Below, piece by piece: positions 440 through 64,000 of a stretch of 64,000 nucleotides of DNA. The translations under genes were made by a program, and so were the position numbers. Within the stretch, counting starts at the first letter, position 1, and the number at the start of each line of letters is the position of its first letter. A model generated the notes under the pieces. It was given only the letters and a program-made list of their open reading frames with translations. It searched no databases and was not told the origin of the DNA. This stretch comes from Myxococcales bacterium (GTDB lineage Bacteria > Myxococcota_C > UBA6777): positions 82,852-146,851 of the forward strand of contig JACKEL010000012.1 in assembly GCA_020632975.1 (NCBI GenBank), written 5' to 3'.

Positions 440-3400
440 TCAACGAATCGGGCGGAACAATCGGAGTTTGGGTCGTTTTCCGAAGGGCAAAAGCATCGCA
501 GCGCCTCGGCAAAGATAAGCAGCACAAGTTTGTCGTCCACGGCGGCGCAGTTGAAGGAACCTGAAACCTTTGGGACAACGGCTACGTGCTTTGGTATGTG
601 GGCAGATTTGGGGGACGCACTGCCAACGGAGGCAGTTTCGATTCCCCATGCGCCAAGGGACAACGATGGAGACTTGGTCACGACCGCAACGTCCGCGTGT
701 ATTGGGTCTGGGGCAACCTGCGCTAAGGCGAATGACGGTTTCTTCTGAGCGCATACAGCGGTACATGGGACACGCAGCGCCACGGATGATCCCTGCGGTC
801 AATCGGGAAGATTGGCCACGGCTGCAACGACCTTTTTTGGGGCGTGGGCAACGAGGATCGAAGGTTCCTCTTGGTACAAGGGCGGGACCACGAGGAGGTG
901 GGCAGGACCAGCTGAAACAAGTCTTGCCGAGTCGTTTGTAAGGCTTTTTGATGGGCGCGCCTGTTGTGCAGCGTGGTGGAGTGGTGGGCGGACAAACGTC
1001 TGTGGGGGCCTTGGCACGTTGACAACGGTAGATGGGGCAAGGCTTTCCAGGTCTGGGGAGTGCTGTGAGCTTTTGTCCTCTGGGACAGCGAAGCTTGGGA
1101 GGCGCAGGGCAACGTCTGGAGGAACCTTTGACGCAAACGGTTCTCATGCAGCGCAGTGACCCGATGTTGTAAGCTTGGTTGGAAGGTCGAGAGCCGCGAG
1201 GACAACGCACGGATGGGCTAGGTGGGCAAGTTGCTGCGGGGGCGGGGGTACAGTGGGCTCTTTTGCAGGTGGTTCCTTTGTAAGAGAAAGTCTGATAATC
1301 GATCTGTTGTCCGCTTGGGCATTGGAGTGCTTGGATCGGGGGGCAACTTGTTTTTCGGCAGCGAGGCCGTTGGCATCGCAAGCCTTTGTAAGCATAAGAA
1401 CGCATGACGATACCTTGCCCTTTGGGGCACTTCAGCAGAGGCACGGCGGGACATTCGATCTTGTCGCAAGAAAAACGCTTACACGTTTTTCCTTTGATGA
1501 GAAAAGTATGTTCAGAGAGTTCGGTACCCTGGGGGCATCGTGTTTTGGGAGCGGGAGGGCACTTGATGGGGACGCATCGACTACGAGAACAGCGCAGACC
1601 TTGGTAGTTGTAGAGTTCTGCGACTTCTTCTGTTTGTGCGGGGCATTCGAGCGGTGTGGTTTGTGGGCATCGAAGCTGTTCGCATCGAAAGCGTTTGCAG
1701 GTTTGTCCGCCAACTTTGTACGTTTCCAAGCGGGGTTTTTGTCCGCGGGGGCAGCGTGATGGGCGCACGGGTGGGCAGCTTTGGGCGAGGCAACGGAAGC
1801 GTTTGCAGGTCTTTCCGAGGAAGACAAATGGCTCAACAAGGAGTCGCTGGCCGCGTTTGCAGCGAGGTTTTGTGGTTCGTGGGCATTGAGGTTTCACACA
1901 ACGAAAGCGTTGGCAACGCATACCAAAGTAGGTGTAGGTTTCGGGCTTTGGCATCTGGTTGGGTCGGCACTTGGGCGGCGCTGCGGGGCAAGCTTTGATG
2001 CGTTGGCAACGTGTCCTGCGGCATCGCTTTCCTTGGAAGACATAGTGCTCGACTTGGGGTTGGGTCCCTGGGCGACAGCGTTTTGGCTTCTCAGTGGGGC
2101 AACGAACAGGGACACAGGCGGTTTTTTCGCAACGCATGGAGCCCATGCGATAGGGGGTGCGTTGGAGGCTGAAACCTTCATCGCAGTAAGATGGCCCGAT
2201 CTGCGGACAAACATTGCGTTGGCACACCCAACGTTTGCAGGTGACACCTTGGTAATCGTATTCTTCTTGGCTGGACTGCAAACCTCGGCGGCATCGTGTT
2301 TTTCGAGAGGGTGGGCAAGCAACGCGTTTGCAGGTTGTGCGGTAACAAGTCATGCCTTGGTGACGATAAGGTGCTTTTTGGGCGCGTGTTCCAGGGGGGC
2401 AGTTGGGTTCACGTTCTTTTGGGCAGAGGGCTTGTTCGCAGGTCTCGCGTTCGCAAAGATGACCTTGGTAGCGGTACTGTTCCAAGATGACGCGTGCGCC
2501 AGGGGGACACTGCATGGGTGGGGCTTGTGGGCAGCTAGGTTCACTGCAACGCTTGACTGTGTAGCGCAAGCCTCTCCAACGGCGTTCTTTGATGACGAGT
2601 TGGCGTCCTGGCGGACAATGGATCGTGACGCAACGCAGGCGAACACAGATCTGGCCACGGAACCACTCGCGTTGTTTTTTGAGGGTTTCTTCTTCTCCAT
2701 CGCACGCTGGGATGGGCCACATGGGGCATTGAACGGGGACGCATCTTGTGCGTTGACAGAGTCTTCCAAAGTGCTGGTAGGTCTCTGTTTTTGGCTCAAA
2801 TCCGTACTCGCAGCGTCCTACAGGATCGGATGGGCAGGGCATCTCTGTGCATGTTGTTGTGGTGCAAAGGCTCGTGCCAAGGCGGTAGGTCTTTGTGTTG
2901 GGCTGGCTACCCGGCGGGCAAGATGCGGGACCTGGATCGGCTGGACAGGTCTTTTCAACGCAGATCCTTTTGGTGCATGTGCGGCCTTTGTAGAGGTAAC
3001 GCACTGTTTTGACGTCTTCGTCTTCGTCGCATTGGGCCGCGGCTTGTAGCGGGCAAGATGGCATGTCACAGATGTATCGTGCGCACTGTTGTCCATTGTG
3101 GTTGTATTCTTGGAGTTTGGTATGCGCTCCTGCGGGGCAGTTCGGCATACGAAGGGCGGGGCATTTTTGTCGGACACACCGCAAGCGGATACAACGCAGA
3201 CCTTGGAGATAGTAAGGTTCTTTTTTGACCTGATATCCAGGAGAACAGCCGATGGGATCAGGGGTGGGGCAACGCAAAGGCTTGCAGCGATAGCGACGGC
3301 AGGTTCGGCCGCTTCTGCGGTAACTTTCGAGCGCTGAGTAATACCCTTGTTTGCAGCGTTTTTCTCGTGGAGCGGGGCAGCGTGTGTTTACGCATCTGTA

Positions 3401-3814
3401 GCGTTTGCAACGCAGTTTGCCTTCGCGGTAGCTGAAAGCCCGTAGGACCTGGCCTCTTCGACAAGAAGGTTTGGGTTCCTCTGGACAGCGGGGGCGTTCG
3501 CAGACTGTGCGGTAACAAACTTGGTTGAGGTAAAGATATGACTGGATCGCAGGCTGTTCACCGCGGGAACATGTGGGCGGAGAGTCGACAGGACAAGGGT
3601 CGATCACGGCACCTTGTTGTCCGTTCCCCAACTGTCCGTTGTTTTGCGGGGGCTGTTGTGGAGGTGGGTTGGTATTGTTGGGTTGTTGTGGGGGAAGCGT
3701 TTGCGCGGGTTGCCTAGAGCTTGGGGGAGGAGGGGGTTGTTGGCCTGGTCCAAAGCAGCTCGACTTCTCTGCTGCGAAAAAGAAAAAGAAACACGACAAG
3801 AGTGTCCATCGCAT
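440..3814 (-). CDS. Secreted cysteine-rich tandem-repeat protein (1124 aa), family not recognised
   Basis: ATG at 3812-3814 follows GGAGG about 10 nt upstream. N-terminus MRWTLLSCFFFFFAAEKSSC is signal-peptide-like, followed by a P/Q-rich linker. About 28 units then follow, each about 36 aa with the pattern C-P-x6-7-C-x14-16-C-x4-C-x4. The protein is very Arg/Lys-rich. Confidence 0.85.
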   Translation of the reverse strand: MRWTLLSCFFFFFAAEKSSCFGPGQQPPPPPSSRQPAQTLPPQQPNNTNPPPQQPPQNNGQLGNGQQGAVIDPCPVDSPPTCSRGEQPAIQSYLYLNQVCYRTVCERPRCPEEPKPSCRRGQVLRAFSYREGKLRCKRYRCVNTRCPAPREKRCKQGYYSALESYRRSGRTCRRYRCKPLRCPTPDPIGCSPGYQVKKEPYYLQGLRCIRLRCVRQKCPALRMPNCPAGAHTKLQEYNHNGQQCARYICDMPSCPLQAAAQCDEDEDVKTVRYLYKGRTCTKRICVEKTCPADPGPASCPPGSQPNTKTYRLGTSLCTTTTCTEMPCPSDPVGRCEYGFEPKTETYQHFGRLCQRTRCVPVQCPMWPIPACDGEEETLKKQREWFRGQICVRLRCVTIHCPPGRQLVIKERRWRGLRYTVKRCSEPSCPQAPPMQCPPGARVILEQYRYQGHLCERETCEQALCPKEREPNCPPGTRAQKAPYRHQGMTCYRTTCKRVACPPSRKTRCRRGLQSSQEEYDYQGVTCKRWVCQRNVCPQIGPSYCDEGFSLQRTPYRMGSMRCEKTACVPVRCPTEKPKRCRPGTQPQVEHYVFQGKRCRRTRCQRIKACPAAPPKCRPNQMPKPETYTYFGMRCQRFRCVKPQCPRTTKPRCKRGQRLLVEPFVFLGKTCKRFRCLAQSCPPVRPSRCPRGQKPRLETYKVGGQTCKRFRCEQLRCPQTTPLECPAQTEEVAELYNYQGLRCSRSRCVPIKCPPAPKTRCPQGTELSEHTFLIKGKTCKRFSCDKIECPAVPLLKCPKGQGIVMRSYAYKGLRCQRPRCRKTSCPPIQALQCPSGQQIDYQTFSYKGTTCKRAHCTPAPAATCPPSPSVRCPRGSRPSNQAYNIGSLRCMRTVCVKGSSRRCPAPPKLRCPRGQKLTALPRPGKPCPIYRCQRAKAPTDVCPPTTPPRCTTGAPIKKPYKRLGKTCFSWSCPPPRGPALVPRGTFDPRCPRPKKGRCSRGQSSRLTAGIIRGAACPMYRCMRSEETVIRLSAGCPRPNTRGRCGRDQVSIVVPWRMGNRNCLRWQCVPQICPHTKARSRCPKGFRFLQLRRRGRQTCAAYLCRGAAMLLPFGKRPKLRLFRPIR

Positions 3815-3987
3815 TGTGAGGGGACCTCCTTCAAAGGTGGATAGGTAGATCGAGCCGCAAGAGCGTTGAGTCGATCAACGAACGATAGTTTGAGGTAGCA
3901 TCATGTAGAGATGGGGTTGCGGAGCAGGCTAAGGTTTGGACGTTGATAGAAGGCGTGTCTTCAATACGTCGCAATGATTCTTTAGCG

Positions 3988-5196
3988 CTACTTGCGCAAA
4001 CGCCGTTTGGATGGTCGTTTGCGTCGTCTACGTTTTTTTCTCTTTTTGTATCTCACACGTCTCTTTTTGAGCCTCTTGCGCTTTTTCTTTTGAGAAGGCG
4101 GCACCAACAAAGCGCGGGGCACGACATAACGCGTCCTTGCAGGTGGTTGCAAAGAGCGGACTTGAGGCTCTTTGGGAGGCGTGGGGGGCTGTGTTGCAGT
4201 GGTTGGATGCGGGGGGACGGGCCAGAAAAGCAACCCCACCAAAGCCAACAACATGAAAAAAGCACCCCAACCAAACACGCGTTTGGGCTTTGCATAATCG
4301 ATCAAGATCAGGCTGATATTGTCTTTCCCGCCGCGATCGTTGGCGGTTTCGATCAAACGTTCTGCTGCGAGGGTCGGGTCCCACTGTCGGGCAAGATGTT
4401 CTAGGATCTCTTGATCTTCCATCATCCCCGTGAGGCCGTCAGAACACAACAACAGGCGGTCACCTTCTTGGAGGTGGAGCGGCAAAGGTTGGCACTCGAC
4501 TTCGACTTCTGCTAGGCGGCCAAGGACGCGGGTGATGATATTGGATTTGACCTTTTCTGTGGACTTTCCTTGTTCTTTCATCCGCTCGATCGCTGAGTGA
4601 TCGCGCGTGATTTGCAACAAAGTCCCTTCCCGCAACAGATACAGACGGCTGTCACCCACGTGAGCGATGTAGGCTTGTTCTTCATGGACCAAAAGCGCCA
4701 CGATGGTAGAGCCCATCTGACGGAGTTTTTCGTTTTTTTGCGCCTCAAGATGGATCGCGCGATTGGCGCTTTGGATGGCTTCGCGCAAGGCTTGGAAGGG
4801 CTGCCAACGCGCCTTGGCGGGTGGATGCTCAAAGTAATACCGCACAGCATCGACAGCGAGTTGACTTGCGATATCGCCCCCTTGGTAACCGCCCATCCCA
4901 TCGCAGATCACCCCGAGGAAACCATCTTGAAGCGGCAAAAAGAGAAAGGCATCTTGGTTGCTTTTGCGTCGGATACCGATGTCCGTGCGCGCTGCGATGC
5001 GATAGAACGGAGGAATAACGTGGTGGATATGTTGATAAAAGCGTGTGGGGTCGAAAGAGGTCGCATCTTTGGCGTGGGGAGGATGGGCGACGGACATTGC
5101 TGCGTTAGACTCCACGGGGCACCAATCCATTTCGGGATATTCTTGGTTTGACTGAAGAAGCCACTCTACACGTTCTTTCTGCGCTTGGCTAGCCAC
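3988..5196 (-). CDS. PP2C-family Ser/Thr protein phosphatase with C-terminal TM segment and polybasic tail
   Basis: PP2C motifs: RKSNQDAF, GVICDGMGGYQGGDIAS, AHVGDSRLY, LLLCSDGLTGMM, NDRGGKDNISLILID. These are followed by the hydrophobic stretch GWGAFFMLLALVGLLFW and a K/R-rich tail. The annotated start is GTG; the true start may be an internal ATG (MDWCP or MSVAH). Confidence 0.9.
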   Translation of the reverse strand: MASQAQKERVEWLLQSNQEYPEMDWCPVESNAAMSVAHPPHAKDATSFDPTRFYQHIHHVIPPFYRIAARTDIGIRRKSNQDAFLFLPLQDGFLGVICDGMGGYQGGDIASQLAVDAVRYYFEHPPAKARWQPFQALREAIQSANRAIHLEAQKNEKLRQMGSTIVALLVHEEQAYIAHVGDSRLYLLREGTLLQITRDHSAIERMKEQGKSTEKVKSNIITRVLGRLAEVEVECQPLPLHLQEGDRLLLCSDGLTGMMEDQEILEHLARQWDPTLAAERLIETANDRGGKDNISLILIDYAKPKRVFGWGAFFMLLALVGLLFWPVPPHPTTATQPPTPPKEPQVRSLQPPARTRYVVPRALLVPPSQKKKRKRLKKRRVRYKKRKKRRRRKRPSKRRLRK

Positions 5197-5297: not shown

Positions 5298-6386
5298 ATG
5301 ATGAAGCGAACCCACCAAGCTGTGGTTTTCTTTGGTTTTCTTGCTCTCTCTTTTGCATCTATGGGCTGCAACACAGAGTTGAAGCGCGCTCGTGAGTCTG
5401 TGAAAAAGAAAGACTTTCAACAAGCCGCTGATCTCTATGAAAACGTTTTGAAAAATGATCCTGAAAACGAAGAAGCTCTTCGTGAAGTGTCCCAGCTTTA
5501 CTGCGAGACCATGAAGAACAACTTCAAATGTACGACCAAGATCGAGGACTTGTACAAGAAGTTCCCCGCAGATCCCAAGATCAAAGCGTGGTTCAAAGAG
5601 GCCAAGTTCGGTCGCGCCAAGAGCTTGTACATGCAGATGCAGTTGAAAGCTGCTGCCAGCGAGCTAAAAGACTATGTCAAGCTCGTAAAAGACGATGGCA
5701 CCGCTTATTTCATGTACGGAAACATCAAGTTCCGCTTGAACAAAAATCCTCCTTTTAACAGCACCCAAATGGATGAGCTGAAAAAAGCGATGGATTTCTT
5801 TGCATTGGCCGTCAAAAACTCCAAGCCTACCGACTCGATGGCAATGTTTGATGAAAAAGTGGAAAGCTTGGTCCAGTGGGAGTCTTATGTCCAAACTGGG
5901 ATCATCTGCGAAGCATTCATCACAGAAGACTTCAAAAAGTTCATGAAAGAGCAAGAAGGCAAAAAGCCCGCTGCTGCTCCCGCACCCCGCCGCAGAAAAC
6001 GTCGTCGTCGCAAAAAAGCGGCGGCTCCCGTGGCTGAAGGCCCCAAGTTCAAGCCCAACAAAGAGTACTTTGACAAGGCTATCGCGGCCTTTACTGCGGC
6101 TTCCAAGATCACCCAGCCCAACAAGCACAAGGTCTGGTTGCCTTACTTCAAGATCGGTCAATTCCACGCACAGTTCTTGGGCGAACTCGAAAAAGGTGTG
6201 GAATGGATGAAAAAAGCGTACGATCTCAACCAGATCAACGCTTCCGTGGTCGGAAACTTGAAGATGATCTACGACCAACTTGCGGAAAAAGCTGAGAAAG
6301 CGGAAGAAAAAGACAAGAAAGCTGAGTATGAGAAACTGTCGCAAGAGTTTGCGTCGAAGATGGAATCTCTACAAGGCAAGCGTTAA
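5298..6386 (+). CDS. Lipoprotein, helical TPR-like repeat protein with internal polybasic insert
   Basis: AAGGAGG lies 9 nt upstream of the ATG. The lipobox is LSFASMGC. The protein is helical and K/E/A-rich, with a [11 protein letters not shown] insert. Confidence 0.8.
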
Positions 6387-12531: not shown

Positions 12532-14913
12532 TTAGGCGTGGCGTCGGCGAAGGAAAAAGAGCAAGGTCAACAGCCAAAACAAAGGCATGGTGGGGGGGAT
12601 CTGCGAAGACTGGCAAGTACAGCCCGCACCCGTAGGGGTGATCTGAGGCTTGCAAGCGGGGTCTTGTTTGCAGTCAGCATCGTTGCATCGTTGGTTGCAT
12701 GGTGTTGCAGATGGTTGCGGCCAGCAAGCGCTGTTTTGGACGCATTGGTAACCACTGGGGCAAGCTGTGTTGTTGGTGCAGTTTTGCGAGCAGCGTGACT
12801 CACTGCCCACTTGTACGCAAAGGTCGCTTTGGCAGTCGCCGTGGTTTTGGCAGGACTCCCCAAGAGCTTTTTTAGAAGCTGAGCAGGGTAGGTCTTTCCC
12901 ATCGCAGTCTTCGTCGATGTTGTTGCCGCAGATCTCTGTGGCGCCAGGGTGGACGTTGGGATCGTTGTCGTTGCAGTCCGGGCCCTTGCAACCGCTGCCT
13001 ACGCCGTATCCATCGCCATCTTTGTCTTCGCAAGTCGCGCTGCAAGGGCGGTCGCCTCCCGCGCAGTCTTCGTCGATGCCATTGCCGCAGATGTCGGGTG
13101 CGCCAGGGTAGATGTCTTTGTTGTTGTCGTCACAATCGAATGGCTCGGGACATCCGGCTTTTTGCGCAAAGTATCCGTCTTGGTCTTTGTCTTCGCAAGC
13201 GGGGGGGCAAGCAAGATCGCCGTCTTTGCAGTCTTCATCGACACCGTTACCACAGATCTCCCGCGCGCCAGGATGGATCTTGGGGTCGTTATCGTTGCAG
13301 TCAGGGCCTTTACAGTCTTTCCCCACACCATACCCATCGCCGTCTTTGTCCACACAGTCGATCTTGGGTTCGACTTTGAGTTCTACGGTCAGTGCGGGAC
13401 CAAAGCGTGTTCCGCTGACTTCGATCTTCCATGTGCTTTTGTAAGTGCCCGCAGTCGCGGGGGCAGTGAAGCTTCCTTGGAAAGCCTTGGTTTGTCCGGG
13501 CTTGATCTGATCTGCGGAACCCAACTCGATGCGAGAAAGGCCGAGGTCATCGCCTCCTGTGCGTACAAGAGCGTAGCCACCCCCGCGAGACCAAGTCGTT
13601 GTTCCTGTATTTTCGAGGGTCCAGGTTTTTTTGGCTGTATCGCCTGTTGCCACGGTGATGGGGTTGGCGGTCTCTTGGGTGAGTTTTGCGTCATCGACGG
13701 GAGCGGCCGCAAGGTTCGCGATATCCGAACCTGTGTAATAGTGTTTGACGATCTGGATGTAGGTCTTTCCACACTTGCCCATGGCTTGGGCGCCTCGCTG
13801 ACAAAGACCGACGCGGTGACCATAGACACCCCAACAGGTACTGTTGCTTGGCTGTCCTTTGCAGATTACGCTACACGAATCGACCTTGTTCTCGATGCAA
13901 TCGACCGATTGGAGATAAGGAAGGGCCGTGGAAGACCAACCCGCGTCTTTGTTGCTGCGGGTGCTTCCTCCGCAACTTGCGGCGAAGTAACCGCCCACCA
14001 AAGATGTCCCATACACCGCGACTTGCGAACGTGTTTCATCGACCGCCCGTGTGGTGGATGTGTACTGTGTGGTTCCCCAGACTTGGCACTTGGTGGTGAT
14101 GCAGATGGATCTTTTTCCGCCTTGGGTGTAGTTGACGGTGTAGCTTCTGGCCGCGATGGCTTGGGCTTTTTGGGCCTCCAAAGGAAAAGAGGAGCCGATC
14201 TCTTTGGGCAACACGCCTCTTAGGTACTCTTCGAGCGCAAGCTTCATCTTGCCGTTGGGAGGGAGCGATGTGCCGCCGACTTGGTAGGTCGTGGTCGTGT
14301 TGTTTTCGATCTCAATCGTTGCAGGGACGGGGTATGTGGGCGCAAAAGGGATCGGGTCACCTTCGCGGGGGATCTCCATGGGAGGAGGTTGTTCTTGGTG
14401 CCGATGCTGGAGGGTTTCAGGCGCCCGAATCAGACGATCCGCTTCCACTAGGCGAGCCATCGGGGGCATCGCGACGAGCACTTGATGGTGATGCTTCGGG
14501 GAGAGATAAGCCTGTGTTGTCCCCATATAACCGGGAGCTTCCACGCGGATGGAGTAGCTTGTTCGGTTGGGTGGTGTCAGAAGAAAGCGGCCTGTTTGGT
14601 CGGTCAGACCGATGCGGGCGACGCCTTCGATGAAAAGGCGCGCCCCTGCGATGGGTTGGCGCGTAAGGATATCGATGACTTGTACGCTCGTGGCTATGGG
14701 AGAAAGCGACGATTGGGGGAGCGTTTCTAAGGGGGGTGAGGGTTGGAACTGTGGCGTCCCAGCGCTCAGGAGGAGCGCAAAACAAGCGCCCGCCAACCAA
14801 AGAAGGCGGTTTATCTGACGAGATCTTTTGTGCATCGCGATACTTCCTTTTATCTCGGGAGGTTTGATCCTCACCATCCTATCGAGATGATGCTTCTCTT
14901 TGAGGGAGGACAT
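12532..14913 (-). CDS. Exported multidomain protein: CarboxypepD_reg-like + SpoIID/LytB + Ig/NBR1-like + 3 MopE-like metal-binding repeats + MYXO-CTERM-like tail
   Basis: Signal/TM segment LLWLAGACFALLL. SpoIID motifs AQAIAARSYTVNY and CITTKCQVWG. Three repeats of D(K)DGDGYG..DC.GPDCNDNDP.IHPGA.EICGNG.DEDC. The C-terminus is GAGCTCQSS + hydrophobic helix + RRRHA. Confidence 0.85.
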   Translation of the reverse strand: MSSLKEKHHLDRMVRIKPPEIKGSIAMHKRSRQINRLLWLAGACFALLLSAGTPQFQPSPPLETLPQSSLSPIATSVQVIDILTRQPIAGARLFIEGVARIGLTDQTGRFLLTPPNRTSYSIRVEAPGYMGTTQAYLSPKHHHQVLVAMPPMARLVEADRLIRAPETLQHRHQEQPPPMEIPREGDPIPFAPTYPVPATIEIENNTTTTYQVGGTSLPPNGKMKLALEEYLRGVLPKEIGSSFPLEAQKAQAIAARSYTVNYTQGGKRSICITTKCQVWGTTQYTSTTRAVDETRSQVAVYGTSLVGGYFAASCGGSTRSNKDAGWSSTALPYLQSVDCIENKVDSCSVICKGQPSNSTCWGVYGHRVGLCQRGAQAMGKCGKTYIQIVKHYYTGSDIANLAAAPVDDAKLTQETANPITVATGDTAKKTWTLENTGTTTWSRGGGYALVRTGGDDLGLSRIELGSADQIKPGQTKAFQGSFTAPATAGTYKSTWKIEVSGTRFGPALTVELKVEPKIDCVDKDGDGYGVGKDCKGPDCNDNDPKIHPGAREICGNGVDEDCKDGDLACPPACEDKDQDGYFAQKAGCPEPFDCDDNNKDIYPGAPDICGNGIDEDCAGGDRPCSATCEDKDGDGYGVGSGCKGPDCNDNDPNVHPGATEICGNNIDEDCDGKDLPCSASKKALGESCQNHGDCQSDLCVQVGSESRCSQNCTNNTACPSGYQCVQNSACWPQPSATPCNQRCNDADCKQDPACKPQITPTGAGCTCQSSQIPPTMPLFWLLTLLFFLRRRHA

Positions 14914-61719: not shown

Positions 61720-64000
61720 ATGCGTCTGCGTTGGTTTGTCTTCGTCACCCTATTTATGATGGGTTGTAAAGACCCTTACTCCCTTGAAGGTGCGCCCAAA
61801 AGCGCTCCTAGCCAGACTTATGGCTCCCTTCAAGATGTGTACAAAGAGAAGAAGTTTAGTCTCAAGACCAAAGCACCCGAGGTCTGGAAAATACCGCTTG
61901 GAAAGGCACCTCGCAAGGGCGATAACAACGCGCTTGTGACCGTCGTCGAGTTTTCGGACTTTGAGTGTCCTTTCTGTTCTCGTGGGGCCAACACCCTTGC
62001 CAAGCTTGAAAAGCAGTACAAAGGCAAGGTGCGTTACGTGTTTAAGCACTTCCCCTTGAGCTTCCACCAAAATGCACACCTCGCTTCGCAGGCTTCTATC
62101 GAAGCGCAGCGCCAAGGTAAGTTTTGGGAGTACCACGATAAGCTCTTCGCCAACCAACGCAAGCTCAAACGACGCGACCTGCTTCGTTATGCCCGTGAGA
62201 TCGGCCTGGATATGAAGCGCTTTGAAGCTGCGTTGAAAAAGAAAACGCATGCGGCTGAAGTTGATGAAGACATGAAACTTGGCGCATCCGTTGGGGTTCA
62301 AGGAACACCCACCGCGTTCGTCAACGGTCGTCAAGCCAGCGCGCTGACCGAAAATGATGTAAAGACCCTCATCGACGATGAGTTGGAGCGTGTCAAAGAG
62401 CAGGTCAAAAAAGGACTTCGCGGTGATGCCCTCTACAACGCCTTGATCGAAAAAGGTAAGCAAAAAGACGCGGCACCCCCACCACGCGCCAAAGAAGCCG
62501 AAGAAGAAAAGCCCAAAGTGATCGCCGTTGGCGAGGCACCTACCCTCGGACCCGACGATGCGCCCGTGACCATCGTTGAGTTTTCGGACTTTGAGTGTCC
62601 CTACTGTGTGCGTGGTGCCCAAGCTGTGAAGAAAGTCGCACGCGCTTACAAAAACAAAGTGCGCTTGGTGTTTAAACACTATCCTTTGAGCTTCCACTTT
62701 GCCGCAAAAGGCGCAGCGATCGCAGCGATGGCTGCCCACCAGCAAGGCAAGTTTTGGGAGTTCCACGACATGCTTTTCGCTGGACAAAAGAACCTTTCTC
62801 GTCCTTCTTTGCTCTCGTATGCTCGGGCGCTTGAGTTGGATATGGACAGCTTTACAAGCGCGCTCGACTCCACTTCGCTCAAAGTCTATGTGGACGAGGA
62901 TATGCGCCAAGGTAACAACGTTGGCGTTCGCGGTACGCCCACCTTCTTTATCAACGGCATCAAGCTCAGCAGTGGCTTGTCTTTCTCTGCGTTCAAAGAA
63001 GCGATCGATCCGATCTTGTTGAAGAAGGGCTTCAAACAGTCCGATCTGCCCGACGAGCCCGGCGAAGAGATCGCGATCGAAAGCTCACCCTCAAAAGGTG
63101 CAGAGCAACCCCTCGCTACGGTCGTGGAGTACTCGGACTTTGAGTGTCCTTTCTGCTCTCGTGCAGCAAGCACCCTTTCTGCTTTGGCCGCGGACTACAA
63201 AAAATATGTGAAGTTTGTGTTCAAGCACTACCCCTTGAGCTTCCACAAAAATGCACACCTTGCTTCGCAAGCGGCCATCGCTGCGCAAGAACAAGGCAAG
63301 TTTTGGCCTTACCACGACAAACTCTTTGCCAACCAACGCAATCTCAAACGACCTGATCTCGAACGCTACGCCCAAGAGCTTGGTCTCGATATGGACAAGT
63401 TCAAAAAAGCCCTTGATACGGGAATCTACAAAGCTCGCGTCGATCTTGAGATGGCTTCAGGATCGCGCGTGGGTGTAAGCGGTACGCCTACCTTCTTTAT
63501 CAATGGCAAAAAGGCCGAAGGCGCGGACTACAAAGCACTTTCCAAGTCGCTGAATGCGATCTTGCTCAAAAAAGGCGTTGCAGCGGGCGACTTGCCTTCT
63601 TCGACAGAGATCCCCCTCAAAGGAACACCTTGGAAGGGCGCAGCCAAACCCCTTGCGACTGTCGTCGAGTTTTCGGACTTCCAATGTCCTTTCTGTTCGA
63701 GAGCTGCCAATACCCTGAAAAAACTCGAAAAGACCTATGGTCGCTACGTGAAGTTTGCGTTTAAGCACTACCCCTTGAGCTTTCACAAAGATGCGCATCT
63801 TGCGTCGCAAGCGGCCATGGCTGCACAAGCACAAGGCAAGTTCTGGCCCTACCACGACAAACTCTTCGCGAACCAACGCAATCTCAAACGACCCGATCTC
63901 GATCGCTACGCCCAAGAGCTTGGCCTTGATATGGACAAGTTCAAAAAAGCCCTTGATTCGGGCGAATACAAAGACGACGTCGATGTCGATATGAATGTGG
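61720..64000 (+). CDS. Lipoprotein with at least 4 tandem DsbA-like thioredoxin-fold domains (partial, runs off the right edge)
   Basis: GGAGG precedes the ATG at 61720. MRLRWFVFVTLFMMGC contains a lipobox. The frame is open to nt 64000. CxxC motifs: CPFC 61966-61977, CPYC 62596-62607, CPFC 63145-63156, CPFC 63685-63696. Each sits in (V)EFSDF(E/Q)CP(F/Y)C...KH(F/Y)PLSFH...QGKFW..HD.LF...G(V/T)PTFF(I/V)NG. It is absent from the ORF track because there is no stop in the window. Confidence 0.85.
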   Translation, partial: MRLRWFVFVTLFMMGCKDPYSLEGAPKSAPSQTYGSLQDVYKEKKFSLKTKAPEVWKIPLGKAPRKGDNNALVTVVEFSDFECPFCSRGANTLAKLEKQYKGKVRYVFKHFPLSFHQNAHLASQASIEAQRQGKFWEYHDKLFANQRKLKRRDLLRYAREIGLDMKRFEAALKKKTHAAEVDEDMKLGASVGVQGTPTAFVNGRQASALTENDVKTLIDDELERVKEQVKKGLRGDALYNALIEKGKQKDAAPPPRAKEAEEEKPKVIAVGEAPTLGPDDAPVTIVEFSDFECPYCVRGAQAVKKVARAYKNKVRLVFKHYPLSFHFAAKGAAIAAMAAHQQGKFWEFHDMLFAGQKNLSRPSLLSYARALELDMDSFTSALDSTSLKVYVDEDMRQGNNVGVRGTPTFFINGIKLSSGLSFSAFKEAIDPILLKKGFKQSDLPDEPGEEIAIESSPSKGAEQPLATVVEYSDFECPFCSRAASTLSALAADYKKYVKFVFKHYPLSFHKNAHLASQAAIAAQEQGKFWPYHDKLFANQRNLKRPDLERYAQELGLDMDKFKKALDTGIYKARVDLEMASGSRVGVSGTPTFFINGKKAEGADYKALSKSLNAILLKKGVAAGDLPSSTEIPLKGTPWKGAAKPLATVVEFSDFQCPFCSRAANTLKKLEKTYGRYVKFAFKHYPLSFHKDAHLASQAAMAAQAQGKFWPYHDKLFANQRNLKRPDLDRYAQELGLDMDKFKKALDSGEYKDDVDVDMNV

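Follow-up and report, generated by a model that had tools for sequence, protein, structure and literature searches.

The window analysed here, a stretch of 64,000 nt from a Myxococcales bacterium (assembly GCA_020632975.1, contig JACKEL010000012.1, forward-strand positions 82,852–146,851), contains on its minus strand a gene for a cysteine-rich repeat protein, which is named crp in this report. The product of 1124 aa begins with a signal-peptide-like segment, followed by a low-complexity spacer and a long array of small four-cysteine units. An earlier note on this DNA, prepared without database searches, had predicted the 1124-aa ORF and about 28 tandem modules of about 36 aa. Both predictions were confirmed, with 27 complete units and one degenerate unit found at a 36-aa period. 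The two units that the note quoted as examples are unit 2 (aa 110–145) and unit 16 (aa 644–679), and the spacer quoted in it corresponds to aa 25–61. The following features were assigned to the gene (positions are those of the window):

440–3814, minus strand: crp, cysteine-rich repeat protein gene with its stop codon (1124-aa entry of the ORF listing, ATG start)
3825–3832, minus strand: Shine–Dalgarno-like sequence GAAGGAGG, 10 nt 5' of the crp ATG (read from the sequence)
3755–3814, minus strand: signal-peptide-like N-terminus, aa 1–20, MRWTLLSCFFFFFAAEKSSC (translation and comparison with orthologues)
3596–3754, minus strand: low-complexity spacer rich in Pro, Gln and Asn, aa 21–73 (translation)
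2618–3595, minus strand: units 1–9, aa 74–399, with a strict 36-aa period, units 5–9 carrying almost no net charge (repeat parsing)
2534–2617, minus strand: degenerate unit and linker, aa 400–427 (repeat parsing and direct sequence reading)
1238–2533, minus strand: units 10–21, aa 428–859, keeping the regular 36-aa period; most are strongly basic, with a charge of up to +9 each (repeat parsing)
497–1237, minus strand: units 22–27, aa 860–1106, less regular, with linkers of 7–17 aa and a charge of +6 to +10 per unit (repeat parsing)
440–496, minus strand: short basic C-terminal tail, aa 1107–1124, MLLPFGKRPKLRLFRPIR, and the stop codon (translation)

The protein contains 112 Cys (10.0%), 144 Arg, 144 Pro and 68 Lys versus 65 Asp and Glu together, and only 10 His per 1124 aa. 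The net charge computed from the sequence is +147 and the pI is 9.9, in agreement with the expected strongly basic protein of about 110 cysteines. Thus, crp could hold about 56 potential disulfides.

Reading frame, strain variation and termini of crp

It was shown that crp is a real gene under purifying selection. A gene of 1124 residues is called at the equivalent place of contig JACKEK010000003.1 in the NCBI assembly GCA_020633035.1, which is 99.6% identical to the window, so that the two sequences are strain variants. Identical neighbour contigs are present in the sequencing runs SRR12358675 and SRR12358676. The two crp alleles differ at 19 nt, comprising 16 synonymous and 2 non-synonymous codons (Q727H and V748A), and dN/dS between them is about 0.04. 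It was also considered whether crp might have arisen as an ORF by chance, as the shadow of another ORF or through an error of assembly, with two observations in favour: the plus strand contains long ORFs too (such as 1781–3049), and the exact crp protein sequence was not found in the protein collection. The second observation is explained by strain variation, because the window copy carries two amino acid changes compared with the NCBI copy. In addition, the predominance of synonymous changes fits the crp reading frame, collinear orthologues are present in independent metagenomes and a Shine–Dalgarno site lies ahead of the start codon; a non-genic origin is thus effectively refuted. The GGAGTCCCC core was also found ahead of the ATG of the orthologue in the metagenomic contig L066. 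Promoter and terminator scans around crp gave scores no better than those of shuffled sequence.

The differences between the alleles are unevenly distributed. Thirteen of the 19 lie within about 210 nt (window 1463–1673, codons 714–784, units 17–19) and are nearly all synonymous, and single-nucleotide differences are about twice as dense in crp as in the 12.7 kb around it. This cluster could be a recombination tract or the consensus of a strain mixture.

The N-terminus consists of MR and a 13-residue hydrophobic stretch. By sequence reading it is signal-peptide-like, and similar N-termini are found in the orthologues (MKWILFSCVVLFSTATSRC in L066 and MRFTLSLFSSMGLPFLATTC in P0001). A cysteine at position 19–20 is kept in the orthologues, and the N-terminus would be cleaved or lipidated. 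The codons for the FFFFF run of this segment (window 3776–3791, minus strand) form a (TTTTTC)n-like hexamer repeat (Tandem Repeats Finder, period 6, 2.7 copies). The repeat is in frame, and a change in copy number would alter the length of the hydrophobic core and leave the frame intact.

At the C-terminus (...CRGAAMLLPFGKRPKLRLFRPIR), the hydrophobic stretch is just 9 residues long, and no such stretch is present in the orthologue L123. Basic tails are also found at the ends of the orthologues (...RRRRRSRRRRKSHRRRSRRRR in L123 and ...KSLRRR in P0004). The MYXO-CTERM signal (TIGR03901), which combines a C-terminal Cys motif with a transmembrane-length hydrophobic segment and a basic tail, gave no NCBIfam match in crp.

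The repeat unit and its predicted fold

All complete crp units have the form C-x6-8-C-x15-18-C-x4-C, and the Cys-to-Cys distances of 8-18-5-5 are almost unbroken along the array. The 36-aa period arises from the junctions between complete units, 20 of 26 being exactly 4 aa long; longer linkers occur in the last six units (aa 863–1102). Within crp the unit reads C-P-x6-C-x2-G-x7-Y-x-Y-x-G-x2-C-x-R-[YW]-x-C-x4. The consensus of the family, determined together with the position frequencies from 86 complete units of 18 proteins, is C1-P2-x6-C9-x2-G12-x7-Y20-x-[YF]22-x-G24-x2-C27-x-[RK]29-[YW]30-x-C32, usually in tandem with 4-aa linkers, and it also shows P7 and R8 ahead of C9. The skeleton proposed previously was correct in its overall pattern, but its spacing of x9-12 after G12 was not: x7 leads to Y20 and is followed by x-[YF]22-x-G24. 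Arg or Lys occupies position 29 in 84% of the family units, and aromatic residues are found at positions 20, 22 and 30 in 85%, 59% and 71% of them, respectively.

The units of crp have diverged strongly from each other, as had been noted at the nucleotide level: their mean pairwise identity is 32% for amino acids and 43% for nucleotides, and Tandem Repeats Finder revealed no DNA repeat with the 108-nt period of the unit in the ORF, only two trivial 6-nt arrays. An HMM of the unit, applied to a six-frame translation of the window, scored the crp ORF at E = 6.7e-288 and gave nothing below E = 0.18 outside it.

Models of consecutive units, a check that the earlier note had proposed, were obtained using AlphaFold2. 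For units 16–18, the run was based on 10 paralogous triples (pLDDT 91.6, pTM 0.49), and for units 1–2, on a 38-row alignment of the whole family (pLDDT 94.1, pTM 0.56). Both led to confident hairpin models, in which residues 1–12 of a unit are non-regular and residues 13–22 and 25–34 form one long hairpin with a turn at G24. C27 and C32 are located on strand 2 and C1 and C9 in the loop.

The degenerate unit (aa 400–423) gives a hint of the disulfide pairing. It contains two cysteines, C2 and C4, at the canonical 23-residue spacing, while the segment with C1 is gone and a Tyr occupies the position of C3. Since C1 and C3 are both missing from this unit, the only degenerate one, while C2 and C4 remain, the bonds C1–C3 and C2–C4 are suggested. 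With this pairing the loop would have to span from the hairpin tip to the open end, and successive units would therefore follow each other head to tail. Tyr20, Tyr22 and Tyr/Trp30 probably pack against the disulfides. Very roughly, a rise of 2.5–3 nm per unit can be predicted, which would correspond to a filament of about 60–90 nm if the units are collinear.

To assess the novelty of the unit, crp was compared with libraries of families and structures. No Pfam or NCBIfam family was found at E<=10, and there was no match in PHROG or PADLOC; tblastn against plasmid and phage collections also gave no match. The family profile found nothing below E = 0.39 among all PDB sequences. A Foldseek search of the unit models gave a best E of 1.3 with TM <=0.31 against PDB, with the VWF C4 domain and TGF-beta only among the noise, and a best E of 0.44 against BFVD. 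NCBIfam incorporates the TIGRFAM models, including those for the TraA-type and Myxococcus Cys-rich repeats and MYXO-CTERM. The TraA-type repeat (TIGR04201), with three invariant Cys in a spacing of its own, was not found in the NCBIfam scan of the whole protein, and neither was the Myxococcus cysteine-rich repeat (TIGR02232, CGDG...EECDDGN type) at E<=10 in Pfam and NCBIfam. EGF-like, furin-like, TNFR and laminin-EGF modules were represented by no Pfam family at E<=10 and no Foldseek match in PDB at E<1. The MopE-type putative metal-binding motif (PF11617) was not found in crp by Pfam; as a positive control, it matched another protein of the window (12532–14913) with E = 1.4e-25. The statements that the module is of an unrecognised type and is not a Myxococcus Cys-rich, EGF or furin-like repeat were therefore upheld by these scans. 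By every library searched, the 36-aa four-Cys unit is a new domain family within the described class of secreted cysteine-rich repeat proteins.

This class (SCREPs) was reported in bacteria and eukaryotes (PMC6262176). Its members have a signal peptide followed by tandem disulfide-rich domains. The N-terminus of crp is signal-like, and with 27 complete units and a degenerate one, crp has the tandem array of at least two cysteine-rich domains that characterises the class. The term SCREP describes a type of architecture and not a homologous family, and the crp module matches none of the catalogued domains. A number of 28 copies is unusually high among proteins of the SCREP type. The TraA and Myxococcus repeats come from the same phylum and are likewise exported, tandem, cysteine-rich and presumed to be disulfide bonded, but their Cys pattern and period are different, and crp lacks a PA14 domain and the MYXO-CTERM tag and is far more basic. 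Thrombospondin type-1, EGF and VWC modules resemble the crp unit as small elongated beta modules stapled by disulfides, but the Pfam search and the Foldseek values given above do not relate them to it.

Relatives of crp and the proposed role of the array

A profile of the 27 crp units was used for an exhaustive search of 1.84 billion (1.84e9) representative proteins at E<=0.001. It returned 16 proteins and no existing repeat family; 15 of the proteins are genuine relatives, and P0005 was ruled out as a low-complexity false positive. P0017, a phage 37-mer, was a spurious cluster member. A word-index homology search with the whole crp and with the 38-row alignment returned no family members; these are false negatives, as the exhaustive profile search finds them. 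The relatives derive from metagenome assemblies and belong to clusters of 1–3 sequences, and the only taxonomic labels among them are 'Myxococcota bacterium' and 'Myxococcales bacterium'. Thus, crp is not an orphan and belongs to a very small family whose labelled members are all Myxococcota. Genome contigs of GTDB species representatives were scanned with crp-specific peptides and no close relative was found. A degenerate Cys/Pro DNA pattern had at least 120 loci in metagenomes. Among the matches listed, three were true (L066, L123 and L133) and the others were mostly low-complexity translations or single chance matches, so these counts give no estimate of abundance; one match on a viral contig was also due to chance.

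Several sequences proved to be orthologues. The metagenomic contig L066 carries the crp N-terminus and units 1–5 with 58% identity (pN 0.30 versus a saturated pS of 0.73). The orthologue P0001/L182 from a marine metagenome (local phmmer E = 1.4e-47 for crp versus P0001) runs on into units 6–8 past an assembly frameshift. P0004 and L123 are C-terminal fragments with a spacer and two terminal units, as in crp. Spacers equivalent to that of crp, rich in P/Q or Q/S/N, are present in L066 and P0001. The crp units are 47–66% identical to their positional orthologues versus about 20–45% for units out of register, and so the array predates the split of these lineages, with each position having a conserved identity of its own. 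Together with the strain dN/dS and the missing unit-period DNA repeat, this bears out the earlier view of an old array under selection.

Many of the other relatives are small signal-bearing proteins of only 2–9 units. A hydrophobic N-terminal segment was found in 11 of the 14 other relatives that start with Met (counted by reading), and one relative has a canonical lipobox, LAAC. In P0010/P0022, a Ser/Thr kinase domain is followed by a transmembrane segment and three C-terminal units. Hydrophobic N-termini across the family and the position of the units beyond the transmembrane segment in the kinase fusion suggest that crp is exported, and the secretion predicted earlier is likewise consistent with the signal-like N-terminus kept in orthologues.

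The same observations bear on a cytoplasmic zinc-binding protein that would bind nucleic acids in a protamine-like or zinc-ribbon-like manner. Four Cys per unit, the high Arg content and the extreme pI fit such a protein, but signal-like N-termini are common in the family and the units of the kinase fusion are extracytoplasmic. Moreover, the units contain no CxxC pair, their spacings being C-x7-C and C-x4-C; His is scarce, and no zinc-finger family of Pfam was matched, so that neither a zinc ribbon nor a zinc knuckle was recognised in this extracytoplasmic context. We consider this explanation very improbable.

Basic character is widespread in the family: the pI is 9.0–11.7 in 16 of the 17 other relatives and orthologue fragments. 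Two relatives point to an extracellular binding context. In P0009 (1132 aa), two units lie between modules matching phage minor-tail-protein families (phrog_3285, E = 4.8e-36) and connect two triplets of tail-fibre-like modules. The gene directly 5' of P0006 encodes a 1261-aa PKD/TIG protein, and a VIT/VWA protein is encoded nearby. The genomic contexts of P0003, P0009 and P0022 were inspected and were not informative on function. The next gene downstream of P0009 (L180 2105–5503) and of P0022 (L173 10001–11932) is in each case convergent and encodes an acyltransferase of about 290 aa (PF01553/PF03982), so that the two proteins may occupy a syntenic slot common to related genomes.

All these characteristics allow us to assume, tentatively, that crp is an exported, disulfide-stapled, polycationic rod that binds anionic polymers of the envelope or matrix multivalently and has a structural or adhesive role in uncultured Myxococcota. 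We favour this reading as plausible, while holding it to be somewhat short of probable. A Sec-type signal sequence would export the protein, and the flexible Pro/Gln spacer would come next. In each module a proline-rich loop of 12 residues would precede a beta-hairpin of 10+10 residues, with the loop pinned to the second strand by the two disulfides C1–C3 and C2–C4, and invariant 4-residue linkers would chain the modules head to tail. The outcome would be a stiff, protease-resistant and strongly cationic filament some tens of nm long, engaging an extracytoplasmic polyanionic polymer through electrostatic and aromatic contacts in a multivalent manner. Candidate polymers are the cell's own exopolysaccharide, LPS or extracellular DNA matrix, or the envelope of another cell.

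The export signals, the topology of the kinase fusion, the potential disulfides, the linker length and the basic, aromatic-rich surface led us to this filament. We infer export, disulfide pairing, the shape and length of the rod and the binding of polyanions. The last of these had been suggested in the earlier note from the Arg and Lys content and appears reasonable. Rigidity is suggested by the linkers of exactly 4 aa and by the unit-by-unit identity kept between orthologues. A cationic binding surface is suggested by the net charge, the Arg/Lys at position 29, the aromatic positions 20, 22 and 30 and the basic relatives.

Several observations weigh against this reading. The charge is uneven along the array, from -1 to +10 per unit, and units 5–10 are about neutral. 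The relative P0016 is acidic (pI 5.9), and thus cationic character is typical of the module and not intrinsic to it. The pTM values of 0.49–0.56 mean that the models do not fix with confidence how the units are oriented to each other, and the aromatic and Arg residues may be conserved for purely structural reasons. In addition, the neighbourhood of crp contains no functional operon beyond an upstream PP2C gene, described below.

A passive function was weighed, in which the array would be a rigid stalk, a spacer or a disulfide cross-linked scaffold of the envelope, with the charge either incidental or needed just to keep the protein attached to the anionic outer membrane. The connector position of the units in P0009 and the strict linker length agree with it, and a rigid stalk is also the role proposed for the unrelated Cys-rich repeats of TraA (PMC3325183). 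However, crp has no other recognisable domain to present, many relatives consist of nothing but the 2–9 units mentioned, and the basic character is kept in nearly all of the family. We therefore regard a purely passive array as rather unlikely.

In another scheme the array would be a polyprotein precursor; its cleavage would release about 28 cationic hairpin peptides of two disulfides each, which would act against microbes or in predation. Many Myxococcota are predators, which would suit such peptides; the units are cationic, aromatic-rich, disulfide-stapled hairpins, and short secreted relatives of 2–3 units exist. Tachyplesin and protegrin are free peptides of about 17–18 residues with a cross-strand Cys ladder. 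Like the crp units, they are Arg- and aromatic-rich hairpins with two disulfides. In contrast, both hairpin Cys of the crp unit, C27 and C32, are on strand 2 of the model and would be bonded to the N-terminal loop, and the units form a fused, conserved array. The 4-residue linkers are variable and no conserved processing site was seen in them, the charge range of the units is wide, and the individual conservation of each unit position between orthologues fits one folded array better than interchangeable peptides. Processing into peptides thus appears quite improbable.

For the multivalent filament, a working analogy is provided by BAD-1 of Blastomyces, a surface protein with 41 copies of a 25-aa repeat, each with a disulfide and basic and aromatic motifs; it binds heparan sulfate, the number of repeats adds to avidity, and binding needs disulfide reduction (PMC4600121). 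Like BAD-1, which consists almost entirely of its repeats, crp would gain avidity for a polyanion from many small disulfide-containing basic and aromatic repeats. Unlike crp, BAD-1 is fungal and has one disulfide per repeat and a Trp-based thrombospondin-like motif, and there is no sequence relationship. Thrombospondin type-1 repeats have Arg and aromatic layers and bind glycosaminoglycans.

The crp module adds a domain family to the extracellular proteins of bacteria, whose fold is confidently predicted although the searched libraries contain no recognisable relative in sequence or structure. At 36 residues and two disulfides, a unit is within reach of synthesis and structure solution and could serve as a stable modular cationic scaffold. 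The protein also points to an unstudied component of the surface or matrix in uncultured Myxococcota, a phylum in which cell–cell contact, the matrix and predation are central.

Neighbouring genes and possible links to signalling

One gene next to crp is a possible conserved partner:

3988–5196, minus strand: membrane PP2C phosphatase with a hyper-basic C-terminal tail (...KKKRKRLKKRRVRYKKRKKRRRRKRPSKRRLRK), 173 nt 5' of the crp start (Pfam PP2C match)

The gene caller's version of this gene occupies window 3988–5097. In L066 (1–150) and L182 (1–260), a same-strand ORF upstream of the crp orthologue also ends in a poly-Arg/Lys tail, at a distance of about 170–200 nt from the crp start as read from translations; only the tails of these ORFs are visible there. 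This suggests that PP2C and crp form a conserved gene pair. The strongly basic tail of PP2C after a single transmembrane segment is topologically odd. A TPR protein encoded at window 5298–6386 (plus strand) has a lipoprotein-like N-terminus and an internal Arg/Lys run, and thus the three adjacent genes for the TPR protein, PP2C and crp all contain extreme basic stretches.

The PP2C gene and the kinase fusion raise the question of a signalling module, whose units would recognise or mimic ligands in a Ser/Thr kinase–PP2C network, with crp or its small relatives meeting kinase ectodomains built of the same units. The architecture of P0010/P0022 agrees with this, as do the short distance between PP2C and crp and the hyper-basic upstream tail in two orthologous contigs. 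However, the kinase fusion is a single case, and no other protein among those returned by the kinase search has units; of the upstream ORF, the orthologous contigs reveal no more than the tail. Since Myxococcota possess kinases and phosphatases in great numbers, adjacency is weak evidence. A signalling role of this kind seems improbable to us. If either the polyanion-binding or the signalling reading is true, crp would be a handle on surface recognition by these organisms.

A bolder combination of these ideas, which we consider unlikely, would make the two-disulfide loop-plus-hairpin unit a new fold class that builds a filament of about 60–90 nm in cis. A small and rare lineage of Myxococcota from the sea and from wastewater would use this filament as a polycationic surface organelle, to adhere to anionic cell envelopes or to attack them; it would be paired genetically with the membrane PP2C, and its units would be reused as a kinase ectodomain linking contact to Ser/Thr phospho-signalling.

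At window 61720–64000 (plus strand) and past the window end, a lipoprotein (MRLRWFVFVTLFMMGC) of at least 4 tandem DsbA/thioredoxin domains is encoded (Pfam DSBA 2.8e-86, 4 stretches), each domain having a CPFC or CPYC active site. The multi-DsbA gene that the earlier note had placed at 61720 is thus real. It lies 58 kb from crp and the link is circumstantial only; the large number of potential disulfides makes crp a natural substrate for studying the multi-DsbA machinery of the same genome. A minus-strand ORF at 61750–62910 was rejected as a DsbA gene because it is a shadow ORF of the multi-DsbA gene on the plus strand.

The protein that served as the PF11617 control (793 aa, window 12532–14913, minus strand) is an unusual exported multidomain protein with CarboxypepD_reg, SpoIID and N_BRCA1_IG domains and three MopE-type motifs. 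The rest of the window is ordinary chromosome, with genes for DnaB, HemL and Ser/Thr kinases. The aconitase encoded in the window is 87–88% identical to those of two metagenome-assembled genomes (MAGs) labelled 'Myxococcota bacterium', and the next-best genomes show <=70% over short segments and 52–65% over the full length. A 544-nt contig, L043 (JAGQZL010000465.1), of the 'Allomuricauda sp.' MAG HKST-UBA90 has 99% protein identity to this aconitase; the same Myxococcota species is its probable source, with the contig placed in that bin as a contaminant.

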